DNA of 21,215 nucleotides, taken from UHGV virus genome UHGV-1726252; one strand, given 5' to 3'. Origin of the DNA: a virus. A program made the translations under genes and the position numbers. The notes under the pieces were generated by a model. That model did not search any database, was not told where the DNA came from, and saw only the letters and a list, made by a program, of their open reading frames with translations. Positions 12,843-20,814 of the stretch are shown here, in pieces (the first letter of the stretch is position 1; each line of letters opens with the position of its first letter).

Positions 12843-13118
12843 TTACTCAATCCAGATCTGTGGCTTACCGTTGAACAACTGTTTGCGGGTAACGGTGTAG
12901 TCCTGGCCCTTCCAGTGAATGACATCGCCTTTGCGTGGCGACACTGCCGGGGAGAACACCACCAGTGACAGGCCATCCCCCACCAGCGGCCCCATTTCTG
13001 CGACAAACTGGCTTTCTACAGCATCAAAAATGACCCCGTTGATCGTGACTTTATCCGCCATCAGATTGACGGTGGCCGCGTCCATACGGGCCACCATCGC
13101 GTCGAAGGGATTAGCCAT
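12843..13118 (-). CDS. Head-tail joining protein, gpFII-like
   Basis: 91 aa from the internal ATG; MANPFDAMVARMDAAT resembles lambda FII MADFDNLFDAAIARADET as recalled. Position between head genes and Z. Start overlaps the end of the preceding gene. Confidence 0.65.
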   Translation of the reverse strand: MANPFDAMVARMDAATVNLMADKVTINGVIFDAVESQFVAEMGPLVGDGLSLVVFSPAVSPRKGDVIHWKGQDYTVTRKQLFNGKPQIWIE

Positions 13119-13434
13119 TAAGCTTAACCAGTACGGCGGCGGCGTTCGCACCGGCAGCCTGCCAGGCTTTCCCTGCGGGGGTCGCGCCGGTGGCCTCCAG
13201 TTGCACTTTCCCGCTTTTGAAGTAAACGGTCTTGCCCTGGGCGATATCATCCGCCGCCAGCTTCGGCAACTGGACTACGCCACTGGTGAGGCCCGTACCA
13301 GTTTCGCCGACGGCAATATCAGCGATAGCGATCGCCAGAACATCCCCAACGGCAACCGGCGTGCCACTGGCAATCACCGCCGACCCCGAGTTGGTCAAAT
13401 CGATAGTGTGACCATCCTGTACGAAATTCTTCAT
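13111..13434 (-). CDS. Small Gly/Ala-rich head protein, putative capsid decoration/cement protein (paralog A)
   Basis: 107 aa from the ATG at 13434, with GGAG 7 nt upstream. First gene after the capsid gene terminator. Clear paralog of the ORF at 20020-20361. Confidence 0.5.
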   Translation of the reverse strand: MKNFVQDGHTIDLTNSGSAVIASGTPVAVGDVLAIAIADIAVGETGTGLTSGVVQLPKLAADDIAQGKTVYFKSGKVQLEATGATPAGKAWQAAGANAAAVLVKLNG

Positions 13435-13442
13435 GAGCTCTC

Positions 13443-13466
13443 CGTATGGCCCCTGCCGGGGCCATG
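13443..13466 (-). other. Stable 8-bp hairpin in the 5' leader of the decoration-like gene
   Basis: Minus strand ATGGCCCC-GGCA-GGGGCCAT, a perfect inverted repeat with no following U-tract, lying between the capsid terminator and the SD of paralog A. Confidence 0.5.
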
Positions 13467-13475
13467 TTGCAGATA

Positions 13476-13498
13476 TAAAAAAAGCCCTTACGGGCCGG
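13476..13498 (-). terminator. Intrinsic terminator immediately after the protease/capsid gene
   Basis: Minus strand GGCCC-GTAA-GGGCT (GNRA-type loop) followed by TTTTTTTATAT, about 20 nt after the stop at 13515-13517. Confidence 0.7.
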
Positions 13499-13514: not shown

Positions 13515-15461
13515 TTACTTACCGGATGATTTCGCCAGGCCGCGATAATCCAGCGGCGCCACACCAGCATCGATGCGGACTTTCGTCGCAACACCATCAG
13601 TGGTGAAACCTTCCTGCTGGTCGATGTACGGGGCATCAATGCCATTGAGGTACGCCACTTCGATGGTATCGGTGCCCTGTGCGGCAGCCAGATACCAGGC
13701 CGCCGGGTCGGCGTCATCCAGACGCGCTTCTGCGATCACTTCGGCAAAGTTCTGCAGCGGGTTCACCACGCCGGCATTGATATCAGCCCCTTTCACGCTT
13801 GCTGACTTAATGGTCTGGCTGGCTAATGTTTCCAGACCCACCGGAACCAGCATGTAGGCCGGACGAATGTTCAGGGCGCGCTCGCCCTCTTTCTGCTTGC
13901 GCATGTTCTGGCGGGCCTTATCCAGGCTGTCAACGCTGATGGCGCCAGCTGAAAGGTTGGCATGGTCAGCATGGAAGAGCGCCTTGCCATCTGAAAGTTT
14001 CCCGTTACCGGTCAGCACGGCGTAGACCAGGTCACCGATAGTGGCTTTTGCAGCGCGGCCCATCTTCATCGGAACGTCAGTCAGCTGGTTCAGGTCATCG
14101 TTGATAATGGCCTGGCGGGTGATGGAGAAGATCTCACCGTAAGTAGCCAGCGCGATGGTTTCACCCTTATCCTGCGTGGTGATGTACTTATACTCCGCGC
14201 CCTCTCGCACCTGACGCAGGGACGGGAAGCCCCCCATGCCGACGCGATGCGCCGTTTTGAAGTCAGAGAGCTGGCCTTTTTTGGTCCAGAGTTCAAAGGT
14301 CTCTGCCGCTTCATCCCAGCCCTGCAACAGCGCTTTGTTGGCGACATCGAGCAGGATATTGCCAAAATCGGAGGTGCTGTGCGTCAGCGCAAAACCGACC
14401 ATCTGCATCGGGTTGTAACTGGAGACCCCGATGCCGCGCTCGGTCAAGGACATGCGGGCGTATTCGCGCAGCGTCATACCGTTATAGACGTTGTCACGCT
14501 CAACATTTTCATAACCGGCACGCGCCATCAGCGCCTGGCGGATCCCGTCGCCAACAAAGTTACCGTTCCCGGCATACACATGGGCCTGCCCCTGCGTAGT
14601 GGTGTTGGACGGCGTGGCATTTTTACCGAGCTCTGCCAGAAGAACATCTTTCGCCTGGCTGACCGAGCACTCTGGATCGGCAATACATTTAGCCTGCAGC
14701 TCCTGATGCTTTCCGCCGAACATGGCGAAGAGATCCTGAATACCGTTCACGCGTGCCTTTTGCTCCGCAATAACCTGCGCACGGATATCAGTTTCGCTGG
14801 CACCTGCCGCCGGAGCCGGCTGGGTGACAGTTGGCTGCTGTGTTTCGCGCGTAGCGGTATTGCGCGGCGGGGTGACCATGTTGCGAATGCTGTTTGGCAT
14901 CTTTTCAAATTCCTCAATACGTTTCGAATGGATGCAGGCCATTGCCTGCAAGGATGGTGTGACCTGGTCAGCGAAGCCCAGCTCCAGACATTCAGTGCTG
15001 GAGAGCCAGGTCTCTTCCTCCAGCATTGCCGCAATTTCTTCGGTGCTTTTTCCCGTCTTCTGCGCGTATGCCGGGATCAACACCGACTCCATTTTGTCGA
15101 GCAGGTCGGCGTAGTCGCGCATGTCATCAGCATCACCACCCGCAAAACCCCACGGCTTGTGGATCATCATCATGGTGTTTTCCGGCATGATGACCGGGTT
15201 TCCTACCATGGCGATGACTGATGCCATTGAGGCAGCCAGACCGTCGATATAAACGGTGATCGCCGCGCCGTGGAATTTCAGGGCATTAAAAATGGCGATA
15301 CCGTCAAAGACATCGCCACCAGGGGAGTTGATATGCAGTTTGATGTGGGTGACATCGCCCAGCGCCTTAAGGTTTGCGACGAACTGCTTCGCCGTTACCC
15401 CCCAGTAGCCGATCTCGTCGTAGATGTAGATTTCGGCTTCGTTTTCCGAACTGGCCTGCAT
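13515..15461 (-). CDS. Fused prohead protease (ClpP/S49-like) and major capsid protein (HK97-fold type)
   Basis: Single ORF. N-terminal ~200 aa carry a ClpP/S49-like serine protease signature (EIYIYDEIGYWG, HINSPGGDVFDG, GLAASMASVI, MIHKPW). A Pro/Ala/Gln-rich linker follows, then a ~330-aa capsid-like C-terminal region. Start uncertain: ATG at 15461 (11 nt after the portal stop, chosen here) or ATG at 15545 (overlapping the portal 3' end). The track extension to 15806 is rejected. Confidence 0.85.
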   Translation of the reverse strand: MQASSENEAEIYIYDEIGYWGVTAKQFVANLKALGDVTHIKLHINSPGGDVFDGIAIFNALKFHGAAITVYIDGLAASMASVIAMVGNPVIMPENTMMMIHKPWGFAGGDADDMRDYADLLDKMESVLIPAYAQKTGKSTEEIAAMLEEETWLSSTECLELGFADQVTPSLQAMACIHSKRIEEFEKMPNSIRNMVTPPRNTATRETQQPTVTQPAPAAGASETDIRAQVIAEQKARVNGIQDLFAMFGGKHQELQAKCIADPECSVSQAKDVLLAELGKNATPSNTTTQGQAHVYAGNGNFVGDGIRQALMARAGYENVERDNVYNGMTLREYARMSLTERGIGVSSYNPMQMVGFALTHSTSDFGNILLDVANKALLQGWDEAAETFELWTKKGQLSDFKTAHRVGMGGFPSLRQVREGAEYKYITTQDKGETIALATYGEIFSITRQAIINDDLNQLTDVPMKMGRAAKATIGDLVYAVLTGNGKLSDGKALFHADHANLSAGAISVDSLDKARQNMRKQKEGERALNIRPAYMLVPVGLETLASQTIKSASVKGADINAGVVNPLQNFAEVIAEARLDDADPAAWYLAAAQGTDTIEVAYLNGIDAPYIDQQEGFTTDGVATKVRIDAGVAPLDYRGLAKSSGK

Positions 15462-15471
15462 ACGGAACCAG

Positions 15472-16974
15472 CTATTTTTTGCCTGGGCTTTCGGGCGGTT
15501 CTTTACCCGGTTTTGCTTCCTGGACACGAGTGTCTCCTTTGTCATTTGCCGGGTCGGTATCAAACACCAGCCCCTGTTTACGGTTCTCGTCAACCTCCGC
15601 CTTACGGCGGCGCTTAACATCATCAGGATTTGCGCCGCGGGCGCGCACCCATTCACTCTCTGTCGCAGCACCGCCACGCAGCAGAATTTTCCAGGCGTTC
15701 GCCTCTTTGACCGGGTCAATCCAGGGCATAACGGGCCCGGAGAACACGGCGCTAAAGAGCGTGGCTTTATCGACATTTTTCGGGACCGTGATCTCGCCTG
15801 AAGCAATCGCCATCCTGAGCCAGGCCCGGTACATAGGTCGTGTGATCGCCGCGATGAATGCGTCCTGAAGAATGAAATAGCCTTCGGTTGACTCCACCAG
15901 CTCCTGGCGCTGCGCGCTGTATGTTCCGTCGTAGTTACGGGCGATACTTGAAAAGCTACCGCGCGAACCAGCGGCTACAGCACGTAGCTGGCTATTACGG
16001 AAAGTTTCGAGGTTGGGATTTGGTCGGTCTGACTTGATCATGCCGATGTCTTCACCCGGGCGGAGATCGTCAAACAGCATGCCGGGCTCGATGTTTAGCT
16101 CCCTTTGACCGCTGCTGCCTTCGTCATAAGTCTGGCCATCACCTTTTTTAATGAACATGCCCAGTGCCGCAGCAATGCGGGCAGCGGTCAGTTCGGCGTC
16201 CTCGTACTCCTTCAGCGCCGAAAGACGCATCAGCACCCCGGCAAGCAGTGAGTTACCCCGGATTTGATGCAGGCGGCGCATGAACTTCAGGTGAAGCATA
16301 TTCTCCGCCTGAATATCCTTGGTATCTCCCTGGCGCATGCCTTCCGCCGGAAGGTTTTTGTAGACCATGTATCGGGTCGGGCGGCCCCAGTCATTCAGGT
16401 AAATGCCCTGGCATAACTTCTGACCCGGCTCTGTCCGCTCCATCGGCACAAAATCCGGTTCCAGAGCCTCAATCCAGAAAGGAATGTCTGCCACCGGCGA
16501 CAGACCGTTCCCGGTGCCACTGACCAGCTGCGCGAACACCTCGCCGTCACGTAACCAGGTCCGGCACATCAGGCGCTCAAGCACTGGTCGGGTAAACTGC
16601 CCGGTAACATCGGGAGAAACGGACCACTCCGCCCATTTGGCGCGGATCTGTGTAGCAAGGTCAGTAGCGATGCCCCCGTTACTCATCAGGGGCTGCGGCT
16701 CCACGATGATGCCTTTTGCCCCCACAATGCGCTCTTCGAGTTTATCAAGGAGGCCGATCACCAGATCGTGGTTACAGTCAAGCCACCGGGCTTGTTCGCG
16801 CAGCGATCGCCCGCCGAATTGCGTCAACTGATTCGCGGAGCGGTTTTCGCGTTTTGCCCGGTGCGTCCGGGTAGGAATGACAGCCTCATATGCCTGGATC
16901 ATCAGGCGCGACTTCAGGCGCTCCGCTTTCCAGCCCGGGGAAAACATGCCTATCAGATTATCCAGGGCGCTCAT
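15472..16974 (-). CDS. Portal protein (lambda gpB family)
   Basis: 500 aa, located between W and the protease/capsid gene. ATGA overlap with the W stop. Basic/acidic C-terminal tail. Confidence 0.9.
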   Translation of the reverse strand: MSALDNLIGMFSPGWKAERLKSRLMIQAYEAVIPTRTHRAKRENRSANQLTQFGGRSLREQARWLDCNHDLVIGLLDKLEERIVGAKGIIVEPQPLMSNGGIATDLATQIRAKWAEWSVSPDVTGQFTRPVLERLMCRTWLRDGEVFAQLVSGTGNGLSPVADIPFWIEALEPDFVPMERTEPGQKLCQGIYLNDWGRPTRYMVYKNLPAEGMRQGDTKDIQAENMLHLKFMRRLHQIRGNSLLAGVLMRLSALKEYEDAELTAARIAAALGMFIKKGDGQTYDEGSSGQRELNIEPGMLFDDLRPGEDIGMIKSDRPNPNLETFRNSQLRAVAAGSRGSFSSIARNYDGTYSAQRQELVESTEGYFILQDAFIAAITRPMYRAWLRMAIASGEITVPKNVDKATLFSAVFSGPVMPWIDPVKEANAWKILLRGGAATESEWVRARGANPDDVKRRRKAEVDENRKQGLVFDTDPANDKGDTRVQEAKPGKEPPESPGKK

Positions 16975-17192
16975 CGCGGGAACCTCGCCAGTTTAAAGGG
17001 GCCACCCCTGCCCGCTGCGGCAGCCACGGCAGCAGCCTGCTTTCGCTCCCACTCCTGGCGGCCCTTCCGGATCTCGCTCAGGTTCTCCATGGTCATCTGC
17101 TGACCGTTAAACGTAATGGACTTACCCTGCAGGATCGCCATTTCCGCTTCGGTATAGCGGCGAACCATGTCCTGAATATCATTGAGATTCAC
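16971..17192 (-). CDS. Head-tail joining protein gpW-like
   Basis: 73 codons from a GTG at 17192 that overlaps the terL stop (GTGA) and has AGGAGG 6 nt upstream. Weak similarity to lambda gpW, including a G-rich C-terminus (GRGGPFKLARFPR against RRRGPAGFYV as recalled). The track start (ATG at 17219) would overlap terL by 31 nt. Confidence 0.55.
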   Translation of the reverse strand: MNLNDIQDMVRRYTEAEMAILQGKSITFNGQQMTMENLSEIRKGRQEWERKQAAAVAAAAGRGGPFKLARFPR

Positions 17193-19291
17193 ACCCAGCC
17201 TCCTGATGATGATGACCATGCAGATTCACGGGCTGGTTTCTTAGCCTTAGGCTCTGATACTGACGGTTTTGCAACCGGCTCCGGTGCCACTGCAGGCGCG
17301 TCTGGCGATGGCTCAACCACCAGATAACTCTCCCGGCGCGCCCACTCAGGGGCATCAGGCCACTTAATCTTTTCGTAACCATGAAGAATGACCAGGGCAT
17401 GTGCGTAAACCATAAGGTCAAACGCTTCGTTAGCCCCCTTACCAGGCTTCGTCCATTTCCCATCAGCTGATCGCTCCTCATAGGTCAGTTCGTCGTAAAA
17501 CCACCCTCCCAGCCAGTCAGGGAAATGCACGAAGTTCGGCCCCGGCACATCGCGCCAAAGCGCGTTGTTGATCCGGTCTTTCAGTGCGTTGGTCTGGAGA
17601 AGGTAGAGAGGGACATCACCGGCGGCCTTCGCGCGCCGGGTAGAACGCCCGGTGTTATCCGGGTAGGTTTTGGTAATCAGCTTCGCCCTGGTCTGGCTGT
17701 CACCCTTGAACAGCCAGACTTTGCGCTGCAGACCGTCACGGCGACAGCGCCGCCAGAACTCATAGGCATTGTCGGTAACGCCATCTTCACCACCGGAGTC
17801 GACGGCCATGGCCAGCAGACCCATTCGCTTGCCCGGTTCGCCATCAAGCGCCCAGGTTTTCTCCAGCACATCGGTGCGCAGCAGATCCCAGTCCTCCGGA
17901 TAGCTGGCAGGATCGATGTGGTAGCTTTCGCCGTCAGGCGTGGTGCGCATCGACTGCATGATGTTGTACCGGTCAACCACCCAACGCTCGCCGTGGGCGC
18001 CGTAGCCAACAACCTGCACCACAAATCGCCGGTTTTTACCGCCCTGAACATCGACGGTCGCCACCAGGAAGTTGACGCCAGCAGGCACGCGCCGGCGCTC
18101 AACAGGTTCGGCGCGCTGCTGCAGCTCCTCACCTTTACGTTGTTCAATGCTGGAGCGCGGGAGATACGGGAGTCCCCAGTCGGTGTTAATGACCGTCTTC
18201 AGCGTTTCTTCGCTGCCGGTCGCCTCGTACTCCTGTTCAGCGGTCAGCAGTTTGTAAACCAGTTGTGCCCAGGTCTGATATGCAGCTGCCGGGCCTTCCA
18301 TCCAGAACGACGCTATTCGCGACCGCCGTCCGGTGCCCGTTATTGTTCCGCTGCTGTCGATCTGCTGATCCTCACGCAGCCAGACACCTTTCATATTCAG
18401 GGAACGTTTCAGGTCGGCGGTGATCACCCCGGAGCAGGAAGGGCAATGGATACAGGCCGCTTCGCTGGCCTTTACCGGATCGCTGATTTCCCGGTAACCG
18501 GTCATCGCCGTCATCTCTGGCTGGAAAAACTCACCACAATGCGGACATGGCCAGTACCAGCGGCGGCGGTCGCCGCGGTTGTACAGTGACAGAATGCCGG
18601 TTGTGGGTGGGGCTTCGTGCGCCGAGCTCCGGCGCCACTTCGTATCGCGAATGTCCCGGCCTGGCGAACTCTCAACCAGCGTCATGCCGGACGACATAAA
18701 CGTGGTGGTACGCTTGGAGGCCAGGGAAAATGCATCACCTTCCCCGTCGATATCCTCCGGGAAGCGGTCATAATCTGTCAGGGCGACGCACTTGTAATCC
18801 GACGAGGACATGATATTGACCGACGGCCAGCCTATCTTGAGGTAGTTACCCGCCCTGAATGTCCTGTCGTAAACGTTGTTATCGTTCCTGCGGGGACTCA
18901 GGCGGGTTGCCACTTCCGGACTGCAACGGAATGTGCGATCCAGTCGTTTCTTCGAGTGCTCGCGGGCCTTTTCCTCTGTCATCTGAATAATCAGCATGTC
19001 AGACGGGTCGCAGACCACGCTATAAACCACCCACCCGTCAATCAGGCCGATTGTCTTCCCCGTTCGCGCCGGGCCGACAAACACCACCGCGTCATACTCA
19101 CGCGACGCCAGGCAGTTCATTGGCTCGAGTACATACGGAGCCAGGTTCGGATCCCAGGGAACGGAGTTACCGGCACCCATTGGCACGCGCATAAATTTAC
19201 TGACTGCATCGGCCACCAGCATGCGGCGTGGGGCACGAAGTATTCCAGGGACATCCTTTCGGATCCCCCGGGCAGATGCCCGCTTCGCCAT
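17189..19291 (-). CDS. Terminase large subunit (lambda gpA family)
   Basis: 700 aa. Walker A-like VFVGPARTGKT, CPHCGEFF...CIHCPSC zinc-ribbon-like motif as in lambda gpA, C-terminal nuclease region. The ATG overlaps the terS stop. Confidence 0.95.
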   Translation of the reverse strand: MAKRASARGIRKDVPGILRAPRRMLVADAVSKFMRVPMGAGNSVPWDPNLAPYVLEPMNCLASREYDAVVFVGPARTGKTIGLIDGWVVYSVVCDPSDMLIIQMTEEKAREHSKKRLDRTFRCSPEVATRLSPRRNDNNVYDRTFRAGNYLKIGWPSVNIMSSSDYKCVALTDYDRFPEDIDGEGDAFSLASKRTTTFMSSGMTLVESSPGRDIRDTKWRRSSAHEAPPTTGILSLYNRGDRRRWYWPCPHCGEFFQPEMTAMTGYREISDPVKASEAACIHCPSCSGVITADLKRSLNMKGVWLREDQQIDSSGTITGTGRRSRIASFWMEGPAAAYQTWAQLVYKLLTAEQEYEATGSEETLKTVINTDWGLPYLPRSSIEQRKGEELQQRAEPVERRRVPAGVNFLVATVDVQGGKNRRFVVQVVGYGAHGERWVVDRYNIMQSMRTTPDGESYHIDPASYPEDWDLLRTDVLEKTWALDGEPGKRMGLLAMAVDSGGEDGVTDNAYEFWRRCRRDGLQRKVWLFKGDSQTRAKLITKTYPDNTGRSTRRAKAAGDVPLYLLQTNALKDRINNALWRDVPGPNFVHFPDWLGGWFYDELTYEERSADGKWTKPGKGANEAFDLMVYAHALVILHGYEKIKWPDAPEWARRESYLVVEPSPDAPAVAPEPVAKPSVSEPKAKKPARESAWSSSSGGWV

Positions 19292-19779
19292 CAGTCCTCC
19301 TCTGGCTCATCCTCCTCCGGTTCTGCGTCCAGCACGCGCTGCGCAATCTGGTCGCGAAGATCGTCAATCACACTCTGCACGCGGCTGACAGCTGCGGGGT
19401 TCAGCGCGCAGTCACGCTCCAGAATGTCCGGTAACGTTTCCAGCACCTGCACCACAGCTTTTGCCATGACAGAAAATTCACGGGCCACCTCATCTGCCGG
19501 GATTAACTGGCCGGTATCCTGCTCAAATTTGAGCCGCTCGTTTTCCGCTTTCCAGTGGGCGAGCCTGTCCGAGGGCGTCATATCTTCGGCGCTGGACGCG
19601 ACGACGGGCGCCATCAGTTCGGTGAGCACATCAGTGATGAGGTAGAGTTTGAGTTTGTTGTTGCTGCCCAGCGCAGGCTCGAGTTGCTTAAGCCTGGCGG
19701 CAACGGTCTGGCGATGAACGCCGGTGATCCCTGCCAGCTGATTGATGTTCAGCTTCAGGGTGGAAAGCTCCTGGTCCAT
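19291..19779 (-). CDS. Terminase small subunit (Nu1-like) with N-terminal helix-turn-helix
   Basis: 162 aa from the ATG at 19779. HTH-like LNINQLAGITGVHRQTVAARL resembles lambda Nu1 VNKKQLADIFGASIRTIQNW as recalled. Acidic C-terminus. The track start at 19791 is a GTG; neither start has a clear SD. Confidence 0.8.
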   Translation of the reverse strand: MDQELSTLKLNINQLAGITGVHRQTVAARLKQLEPALGSNNKLKLYLITDVLTELMAPVVASSAEDMTPSDRLAHWKAENERLKFEQDTGQLIPADEVAREFSVMAKAVVQVLETLPDILERDCALNPAAVSRVQSVIDDLRDQIAQRVLDAEPEEDEPEED

Positions 19780-19884
19780 GATGGTGAACACTTTTTGAAC
19801 GATTCGACATCATTGCAAAACGTCACTGATAAAAATCATACAGTTATGCACATGATGATGATGACCCTGGATCACGAAAACTAG

Positions 19885-19920
19885 CCGTTTTCCGCGTGCC
19901 CGCCGCCTCGTGGCAGGCCA
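19885..19920 (-). other. Candidate cos site (cosN-like GC-rich element) upstream of terS
   Basis: Minus strand ACGAGGCGGCGGGCACGCGG matches the lambda cosN region ACGGGGCGGCGACCTCGCGG (as recalled) at 16 of 20 positions, about 120 nt upstream of the terS ATG. An A/T-rich stretch with an IHF-like site (TATCAGTGACGTTTT) lies between it and terS. Confidence 0.45.
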
Positions 19921-20019
19921 CCCCTCCGGGAGGACCCGTCCATATGAGAATGGTTATCAGTTGAGGTGGGGATCTGGCGGGGTTGCCCGGCTAGTCTGGG
20001 CGCTGGATGGGGCTGATGG

Positions 20020-20361
20020 TTAGAAGCCGAGGCGAACGCGACCCTCAGGGTCGTTTGCATTGGTGGTAATCCACGCAGTGCCTGCAACGGCGTTGTCATC
20101 AGTGCCATCCTTCGAGCTACTGGTCAACTTGCCATCTTTCGTCAGCCAGAGTCGGACCCCGCGCTGCCAGGTCTCAGCTGCAACCTTCGGCAAGACGAAT
20201 ACTCCGGTCATCATCAGAACACCATCACCGCTGGCGGCGATATCGTGCTGAGCGATACCGATGATCGCACCAACAATCACCGGTTGACCTGACACCACAT
20301 CTTTTGTGGTCCCGTTATGCCAGTCCATTGTATTGCCGTCCTGGTAGTAGTTTTTAGCCAT
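20020..20361 (-). CDS. Small Gly/Ala-rich protein, paralog B of the putative decoration protein, located outside the head module
   Basis: 113 aa from the ATG at 20361 (AGAGG upstream). Aligns along its length with the ORF at 13111-13434 at roughly 35-40 percent identity (MAKNYYQDGNTMD against MKNFVQDGHTID; shared G.PV.VG, DIA..G.G, GV..LPK.AA). Confidence 0.5.
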   Translation of the reverse strand: MAKNYYQDGNTMDWHNGTTKDVVSGQPVIVGAIIGIAQHDIAASGDGVLMMTGVFVLPKVAAETWQRGVRLWLTKDGKLTSSSKDGTDDNAVAGTAWITTNANDPEGRVRLGF

Positions 20362-20514
20362 ATTGGGCCTCTGGTTATGCCTGATAAGCAGGTTAAAAGA
20401 ATAGGTATTACGTTCGTTGCGCCGGGTGCGCTGAGGGGTAATTGACATGAGCATGTGTCTTCACATGATGATGTTAACTATCAGCCCCGCGAGAGCGAGG
20501 CTGCAAATAGCATG

Positions 20515-20814
20515 CTACGGTCTTGAAGTGCTCACGATGTATGAATCCACCACGCCGTCCTTATTTACTTTGACGACGAGCGATTTGCCCTGCCCCACGC
20601 TGAACGCTGTTGCATGAGCGTAGGTCCAACCATAAATCTTATTGCCCTCGGAATCGGCAGTTACTGAGGTTGGCTTACCGAACTTCTGCAAAACAGCCTG
20701 CTCAGTCGTAACCCCCTTTTGGATTGAGGTGACATCTGCTTCCGAAAAGTCTTTACCCACCGTCGCGCAACCGACCAGACCCAAAGCAATGACACCCAGA
20801 ATTGTCTTTTTCAT
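20515..20814 (-). CDS. Small lipoprotein (moron-like)
   Basis: 99 aa with a signal peptide and lipobox (MKKTILGVIALGLVGC). AAGGGA SD 9 nt upstream of the ATG. Base composition is lower in GC than the structural genes. Confidence 0.6.
   Translation of the reverse strand: MKKTILGVIALGLVGCATVGKDFSEADVTSIQKGVTTEQAVLQKFGKPTSVTADSEGNKIYGWTYAHATAFSVGQGKSLVVKVNKDGVVDSYIVSTSRP

Follow-up and report, generated by a model that had tools for sequence, protein, structure and literature searches.

Why would a phage carry a second gene for a capsid cement (decoration) protein, and why would that gene sit beside the packaging site instead of next to the capsid gene? The question is raised by a 21,215-nucleotide stretch of the virus genome UHGV-1726252, analysed here at its full length and referred to as the window. 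One cement gene of the window (copy 1, 13111..13434, minus strand) belongs to the head module, encodes 107 aa and has a GGAG ribosome-binding site (RBS) 5 nt upstream, while the other (copy 2, 20020..20361, minus strand) encodes 113 aa, has a GAGG RBS 6 nt upstream and lies ahead of the predicted cos site, a location termed pre-cos below. Both open reading frames (ORFs) are intact on the minus strand at these coordinates, which include the stop codons (read on the plus strand, the same intervals are riddled with stops), and a scan of the six-frame translation of the window with a profile HMM built from 103 family members returned exactly these two cement genes.

A first-pass annotation of the sequence had estimated that the two proteins resemble each other end to end at roughly 35-40% identity, and pairwise alignment with BLASTP bears this out, with 40 identities over 109 positions (37%) between residues 2-105 of copy 1 and 3-111 of copy 2 (E 2e-18). 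Its guess at a DUF2190-type family was equally sound: in an HMM search both proteins match PF09956 (Phage_cement_2, formerly DUF2190) well above the cut-off of 24 bits, copy 1 with 80.7 bits and copy 2 with 74.4 bits, and both matches are full-length (model positions 1-103 and 2-103, respectively). Furthermore, both match PHROG 122, ‘head decoration’ (E 4e-36 for copy 1, E 8e-25 for copy 2), and share the N-terminal motif KN[FY]xQDGxT[IM]D, while neither passes any model in a search of NCBIfam. Both proteins are ordinary members of a known family, and the novelty lies in the gene arrangement. As for its extent, the start codon of copy 2 is, on sequence grounds, the methionine of MAKNYY and not an upstream ATG at 20454, because the homologue alignment and the GAGG RBS agree on this 113-aa start; all copy 2 homologues begin with MAKNYY. 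Public annotations of copy 2 differ over the interval 20362-20454 (minus strand), some extending the protein to 142 or 144 aa via the upstream ATG, and shortened versions of 86 to 92 aa are likewise present.

Sequence searches of the PDB were uninformative, so that fold comparison was needed: single-sequence searches of PDB sequences gave nothing meaningful, and a profile search gave only a weak match, to the ‘Cement’ chain of Pam3 (E 0.31). AlphaFold2 models of the two proteins (pLDDT 91.5 for copy 1 and 91.1 for copy 2) both show the small beta-rich fold of solved decoration proteins. The best PDB match of both models is phiCD508 gp48 (TM 0.79 for copy 1, 0.76 for copy 2, E 1e-4), and the leading PDB matches belong without exception to capsid decoration or cement proteins, namely phiCD508 gp48, Pam3 cement, the base of phi29 gp8.5, HFTV1 and T1. 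A partial fold match to lambda gpD and phage 21 SHP extends over about 60 residues (TM ~0.42, prob 1.0). In phiCD508, gp48 is trimeric, with 420 copies arranged as trimers, each touching nine capsid proteins, and with about one copy per capsid subunit; its contacts with the capsid include an N-terminal arm (PMC11948020). The closest structural match to both models (PDB 9gay/9gb0), gp48 resembles them in being small and all-beta with an N-terminal arm, but differs in that its sequence identity to the window proteins is just 13-15%, its gene, to judge from the numbers gp48/gp49, apparently lies ahead of the capsid gene within the head module, and only one decoration protein is modelled in the capsid structure (PMC11948020).

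The position of copy 2 is defined by the order of the late genes, which was read from the window together with identical contigs; all genes of the region lie on the minus strand. Transcription order begins with antiterminator Q, two holins, the endolysin, small ORFs and a 99-aa lipoprotein, so that Q and the lysis genes lie upstream of copy 2 in the same orientation, followed by copy 2 and cos. Beyond cos come terS (19291..19779), a small terminase of the DUF1441 family (PF07278, E 6e-42, also called in loci L001-L008); terL (17189..19291), a large terminase with GpA ATPase and nuclease according to the Pfam families of the identical gene in L001; a gpW-like gene; the portal gene (15472-16974); a 670-aa fusion of ClpP-like prohead protease and major capsid protein (13515..15527; NCBIfam NF045540, 992.6 bits against a cut-off of 475); copy 1; directly 3' of it, a Gifsy-2-family head-tail adaptor (12843..13118; PF13856, E 7e-17); and the tail genes, again all on the minus strand.

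The predicted cohesive end, a 12-mer equivalent to cosN at 19897..19908 (minus-strand reading AGGCGGCGGGCA), was assigned by homology only: in the alignment with Escherichia phage LLS, window 19897-19908 falls opposite GGGCGGCGCGCT, which is annotated there as the 12-nt 5' cohesive end on the left. Around it, between copy 2 and terS, lies a conserved cos-region block (19840..19966, minus strand; TCAACTGATAACC...GGGTCCTCCCGGAGGGGTGGCCTGCCACG...GGAAAACGGCTAGTTTTCG) that is kept in pre-cos loci as well as in the satellite-like elements L134 and L181, and from terS upstream the window is 77% identical to phages mEp043, mEp213 and LLS. The stop codon of copy 2 lies about 112 nt upstream of the predicted cohesive end, and copy 2 would therefore be the last gene at the right end of the virion DNA. 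In transcription order it stands about 4.5 kb upstream of the capsid gene, with cos, terS, terL, the gpW-like gene and the portal gene between, and the place immediately 3' of the capsid gene is taken by copy 1, not by copy 2. The alignment with the LLS cohesive end confirms what had been proposed from the letters, that the second copy lies outside the head module as the last gene before cos. Upstream of copy 2, the lipoprotein gene (20515..20814, minus strand), recognised by a signal peptide and Cys in its translation, is a variable accessory gene present in some relatives only, and marks the outer edge of the conserved block. One source names an SmpA/OmlA domain in its product, its position between lysis genes and cos is Bor-like, and Pfam, NCBIfam and PADLOC gave no match above threshold.

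Such a placement had been called unusual from the start, a view that the phage records uphold. Among 50,697 of them 29 match, each at a single place, and none of the 29 has a second copy; the three that were checked have their cement gene in the head module, directly 3' of the capsid gene. The copy 2 region has no match in complete E. coli genomes, whether searched in near or distant mode. The sparse literature mentioning DUF2190 or PF09956 holds nothing on function or gene position, and no description of a pre-cos cement arrangement was found in it or in the phage records. The phages most like the window phage in this respect, which include mEp043, mEp213, LLS, Stx2a prophages, yong2 and Chris1, share PF09956, the ClpP-capsid fusion and the position of copy 1, but have a single matching place per record, and LLS has an unrelated hypothetical gene as its last one before cos.

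Better-known cement systems provide partial parallels. Lambda and phage 21 are lambdoid cos phages with a trimeric cement protein (gpD and SHP, respectively) that is encoded in the late operon, occupies threefold sites and matches part of the fold, but belongs to another sequence family than the two PF09956 copies. The gpD/SHP gene sits between the scaffold and capsid genes, and we know of no second paralogue or pre-cos copy. In T4 (Soc/Hoc) and P4 (Psu), decoration genes lie away from the capsid gene, or two decoration proteins occur. Another example is Shigella phage Sf14, with two decoration proteins, gp33 and gp20, on one capsid (PMC11821841). As in the window, a cement gene in these phages need not adjoin the capsid gene, and two accessory proteins per capsid are possible; however, the proteins of Sf14, T4 and P4 have unrelated folds and different sites, whereas those of the window are paralogues with the same predicted fold and N-terminal arm motif.

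The origin of copy 2 can be traced through its relatives. The exact protein is found on contigs in 256 collection blocks and recurs widely, with an unvarying layout, in draft assemblies of E. coli, Enterobacter and Leclercia, while homologues with 67-92% identity come from Kluyvera, Atlantibacter, Buttiauxella, Enterobacter and metagenomic viral contigs. When the terS, terL, portal, capsid and cement genes were mapped on about 100 loci, three configurations emerged. In configuration A, a copy-2-type gene (49-65% identity) lies directly 3' of the capsid gene and nowhere else, as in L014-L018, L020, L059-L107, Hafnia phage yong2 and Citrobacter phage Chris1. Configuration B (L022, L024/L025, L058 and L069) has the pre-cos gene only, with none 3' of the capsid gene, and configuration C, which includes the window and comprises about 35 loci from several genera, has both genes.

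Copy 2 is nearer to the head-module genes of those other phages (49-65%) than to copy 1 of its own genome (37%). In a neighbour-joining tree of 103 distinct cement proteins, the pre-cos genes form one clade (bootstrap 90/100) that is nested among the configuration A head-module genes and in which the configuration B genes branch basally, while copy-1-type genes form a separate clade (bootstrap 100/100). Given these separate clades and the nesting of copy 2 among configuration A genes, copy 2 is, as far as the tree can tell, not a duplicate of copy 1 but a different cement lineage, which moved into the pre-cos slot a single time and afterwards spread. The first-pass annotation had spoken of a duplicated, divergent paralog, which the tree does not support: copy 2 is a separate lineage that arrived by modular recombination, not by duplication within the genome. 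Traces of the relocation were sought as well; no capsid similarity was found upstream of copy 2 at E < 1e-3, as a remnant of a capsid 3' end would give, and the intergenic region by copy 2 does not align with capsid-cement intergenic regions.

Configuration B is the one in which the pre-cos gene stands alone. A profile search found exactly one cement gene in each of L022, L024, L058 and L069, and in each case it is the pre-cos one. L024, L058 and L069 have capsids 77-83% identical to that of the window and siphovirus-type tails; in their capsid-to-adaptor gap, a terminator-like hairpin, a second hairpin and the RBS are kept and the cement ORF is cleanly gone, the retained RBS now driving the adaptor gene directly 3' of the capsid intergenic region. 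L022, with a myovirus-type tail and 54% capsid identity to the window, has a pre-cos-clade gene and lacks the head-module cement gene that is present in its nearest relatives (capsid 80-83%, terS 93%). The pre-cos gene has displaced the resident cement gene in two capsid lineages sharing just ~54% identity. Moreover, 80 viral contigs with a capsid at least 83% identical to the window's were fetched, and both positions could be assessed in 71; in 59 of these the head copy stands alone, 11 combine the two genes, one has only the pre-cos gene and none is without any cement gene, with six ‘h0/p0’ contigs and L225 counted as head-positive from their ‘other’ matches. Some cement gene is hence retained in every assessable capsid relative (71/71). 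Since no cement-less capsid relative was found, phages of this capsid family apparently cannot do without a cement gene, and the pre-cos gene seems able to supply the cement.

Copy 2 is probably, then, a working, late-expressed cement gene that was relocated to the pre-cos slot, and the window phage a mosaic. This reading builds on the demonstrated homology, family membership, predicted fold, phylogeny, synteny classes, purifying selection and mosaic boundaries. The copy 2 lineage would ancestrally have stood directly 3' of the ClpP-protease/capsid fusion, with one monophyletic subgroup now found ahead of cos and terS. Copy 2 would become the first gene of the packaging/head block when the DNA is circular or concatemeric, and a Q-antiterminated late transcript that starts from the lysis genes and crosses cos would read it; from this we infer late expression. 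Because the predicted fold is like that of trimeric decoration proteins bearing an N-terminal arm, such as phiCD508 gp48, copy 2 may form trimers and bind the expanded capsid at threefold and quasi-threefold positions. As a recombinant mosaic of a block on the copy 2-cos-terS side and a block on the capsid-copy 1 side, the window phage encodes two cement proteins. As the N-terminal arm motif is common to both, the same capsid targets are expected, and copies 1 and 2 are likely either to be rivals for these sites or to share them, which may include joint occupancy of one capsid. An alternative or auxiliary cement protein had been one of the roles first suggested for the second copy, and the family, the predicted fold and the four loci with a pre-cos gene as sole cement lend it support; adaptation to another role, the second suggestion, is possible, and nothing found points there.

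Selection on the pre-cos genes bears on the first alternative, namely that copy 2 is a competent cement gene that adds nothing in the window phage and is carried as a redundant passenger by attachment to the cos/terS packaging block, being kept intact through frequent allele exchange with phages that have it as their sole cement. Such an account would fit the 59 of 71 capsid relatives without a pre-cos copy and the existence of pre-cos-only phages in which selection could act. It would also fit the turnover of copy 2 alleles by recombination: synonymous divergence between the window and close relatives is 0.6-1.6 for copy 2 against 0.09-0.25 for the adjacent terS and terL (3-15x). However, the state with both copies occurs in about 35 loci from several genera, against four pre-cos-only loci, and simple redundancy would not predict that this configuration is common with both genes under constraint. 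Pairwise dN/dS among pre-cos genes is 0.04-0.17, unsaturated pairs with dS of ~0.3 included, and the values for copy 2 against the close relatives of the window that have both copies are 0.04-0.08, placing the constraint within the both-copies group itself. Additionally, none of the otherwise intact configuration C loci was seen to have a truncated or frameshifted copy 2, and a comparison of 35 distinct pre-cos proteins shows little or no change in the N-terminal arm (MAKNYYQDGNTMDW), the core strands and the C-terminal VRLGF, variation being concentrated in three or four loops. We therefore regard a mere passenger as unlikely, albeit the best surviving of the alternatives to a working cement gene.

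The exchange of copy 2 between genomes leaves sharp boundaries. Seven configuration C relatives align with the window at the nucleotide level from the very first codon of copy 2 onwards, across cos, terS and terL, and have other sequence in place of the lipoprotein region upstream of copy 2. Four configuration A relatives with 97-99% identical terS have other cargo instead of copy 2, and their homology to the window starts 57-83 nt past its stop codon, inside or just upstream of the cos block. There are also pairs with capsids more than 99% identical in which the copy 2 alleles are just 86-92% identical; because of these diverged alleles beside near-identical capsids, and because of the high synonymous divergence of copy 2, this gene is exchanged independently, without tight co-variation with the capsid. 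Such independence, like the 59 of 71 capsid relatives that do without a pre-cos copy, speaks against the reading of copy 2 as a working cement gene. By the evidence of these alignments, copy 2 is swapped as a discrete cassette with one breakpoint at the start codon and the other a little upstream of cos. Some swapping of alleles is seen for copy 1 too: in L029, for instance, its dS is 0.39 against 0.015 for the capsid.

A second alternative takes this mobility further and holds that ‘cement-cos’ is a mobile cassette passing between helpers and satellites, and that the two paralogues are non-redundant, partitioning between different quasi-equivalent capsid sites or forming mixed trimers, in a heterotypic cement lattice of a type so far undescribed in lambdoid phages. 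We consider it less likely again than a passenger. The elements that bring satellites into play are several. One viral contig (L057/L108/L110, where L110 is L108 reverse-complemented and corresponds to the L057 coordinate + 1284) is a configuration B phage with a roughly 10-kb element interrupting its terL, at ~2490-12500 of L110. The terL of L110 breaks after ‘...CDPGDML’, resumes at ‘MLVVQMTQDK’ and is 97.6% identical to the intact one of L058. The element encodes a tyrosine integrase, a DUF927 protein of 705 aa, a ClpP-capsid fusion whose gene has a nonsense codon, and a cement protein of the pre-cos clade, and it has a cos-like region and a DUF1441 terS of its own. A perfect 29-bp direct repeat occurs close to either end, and the whole resembles a capsid-encoding satellite that has inserted into the terL of its helper. 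That L057 is a circular or tandem assembly artefact was considered and rejected, its two cement-cos copies being just 83.6% identical, and so was a conserved recoding site at the in-frame stop of the major capsid protein gene of L057/L110, which is an Asn codon in three related elements.

Three further elements of 9-14 kb (L134 9735-12100, L135 8043-10330 and L181 7203-9820) have, in this order, an integrase, DUF927, the ClpP/capsid fusion, a hairpin, cos and terS; no portal, terL or tail genes were detected in them, and they have no cement gene. Their cos-like block (GGGTCCTCCCGG...GGCCTGCCACGGGGCGG...GGAAACGGCTAGTTTTT) is very similar to window 19860-19940, which makes the window phage group their possible helper, and they look like capsid-encoding satellites of that group. 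The cement-bearing satellite most likely captured ‘cement-cos’ from its helper, in which case the cement-cos junction travels as a unit.

Less probable still, and in our view doubtful, is a third alternative, in which copy 2 is a moron-like gene that has kept the cement fold and acts elsewhere, for example as a lysogen-made poison of the capsids of superinfecting relatives or in the service of satellites. Its location suggests as much, since the stretch between lysis genes and cos, here beside a lipoprotein gene, is a classic accessory slot, and the high diversity of copy 2 alleles and the presence of the same gene beside the own cos of a capsid-encoding satellite-like element could be read in the same way. 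The pre-cos slot indeed behaves as a variable accessory or cargo site, given the 59 of 71 relatives without a pre-cos copy and the other cargo that relatives have in this slot. In L228 (2097-3558; terS 97.6% identical), the one examined of the four configuration A relatives with near-identical terS, the slot holds an IS3-type transposase pair and an unrelated 101-aa ORF. Against a moron, a crude consensus scan found no sigma-70-like promoter or terminator flanking copy 2 on its own strand, and its GC content (0.58) is like that of the structural genes, whereas the upstream accessory region has 0.48-0.51 and the lipoprotein gene 0.48-0.49, so that of the usual marks of a moron, location alone fits. 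Neither copy 2, copy 1 nor the neighbouring small genes matched a PADLOC defence model at E <=0.01. Furthermore, the gene is the sole cement in four loci, no capsid relative is without cement, and the N-terminal arm motif is kept exactly as in head-module genes. Because homology has its edge at the start codon, the GC content is structural and no own promoter or terminator was found, copy 2 is better understood as a structural gene that opens the packaging/head block than as an autonomous moron.

A decaying recent in-genome duplicate, or a chance likeness of small Gly/Ala-rich ORFs, has nothing in its favour except the low identity of the two copies and can be set aside in view of their pairwise E value of 2e-18, the full-length family matches of both, their separate clades with bootstraps of 100 and 90, the greater similarity of copy 2 to other phages' head-module genes than to copy 1, the strong purifying selection and the identical protein in 256 collection blocks; the pseudogenised duplicate that the first-pass annotation had named as its own refutation is excluded by an intact ORF, conserved across genera at dN/dS 0.04-0.17.

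Cement proteins set capsid stability and are widely used as display scaffolds, and the assumption is that their genes move together with the capsid gene. In the present case, a cement gene has become detached from it and attached to the packaging site, and coexists with a paralogue in many prophages. If both proteins decorate one capsid, the window phage and its relatives would offer a natural system for paralogues competing for, or sharing, lattice sites; if not, they would be a clear case of positional displacement of a structural gene via modular recombination. Either way, the locus advises caution in reading function from position, as a gene in a ‘moron slot’ may be structural.

Two minor observations concern the flanks of the two genes. 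Between the capsid gene and copy 1, a pattern scan and RNA folding identified a terminator-like hairpin with a T-run (13477..13496, minus strand), which is also found 3' of the capsid gene in L015, L020, L024, L058 and L069. It has a T7 run and lies directly past the capsid stop codon, and a second, GC-rich hairpin (13448-13463, minus strand) precedes the copy 1 RBS. Both are kept in distant relatives, even in those without a head-module cement gene, and the pair is possibly an mRNA-stability or attenuation element that tunes expression from the capsid gene to the genes downstream. Near the pre-cos gene, a prophage remnant in Buttiauxella massiliensis (L013 100-956, NZ_LR722674.1) retains an intact pre-cos cement gene and the cos region, with terS broken off after about 75 aa and followed by chromosomal genes (glutathione peroxidase, ABC transporter and others).
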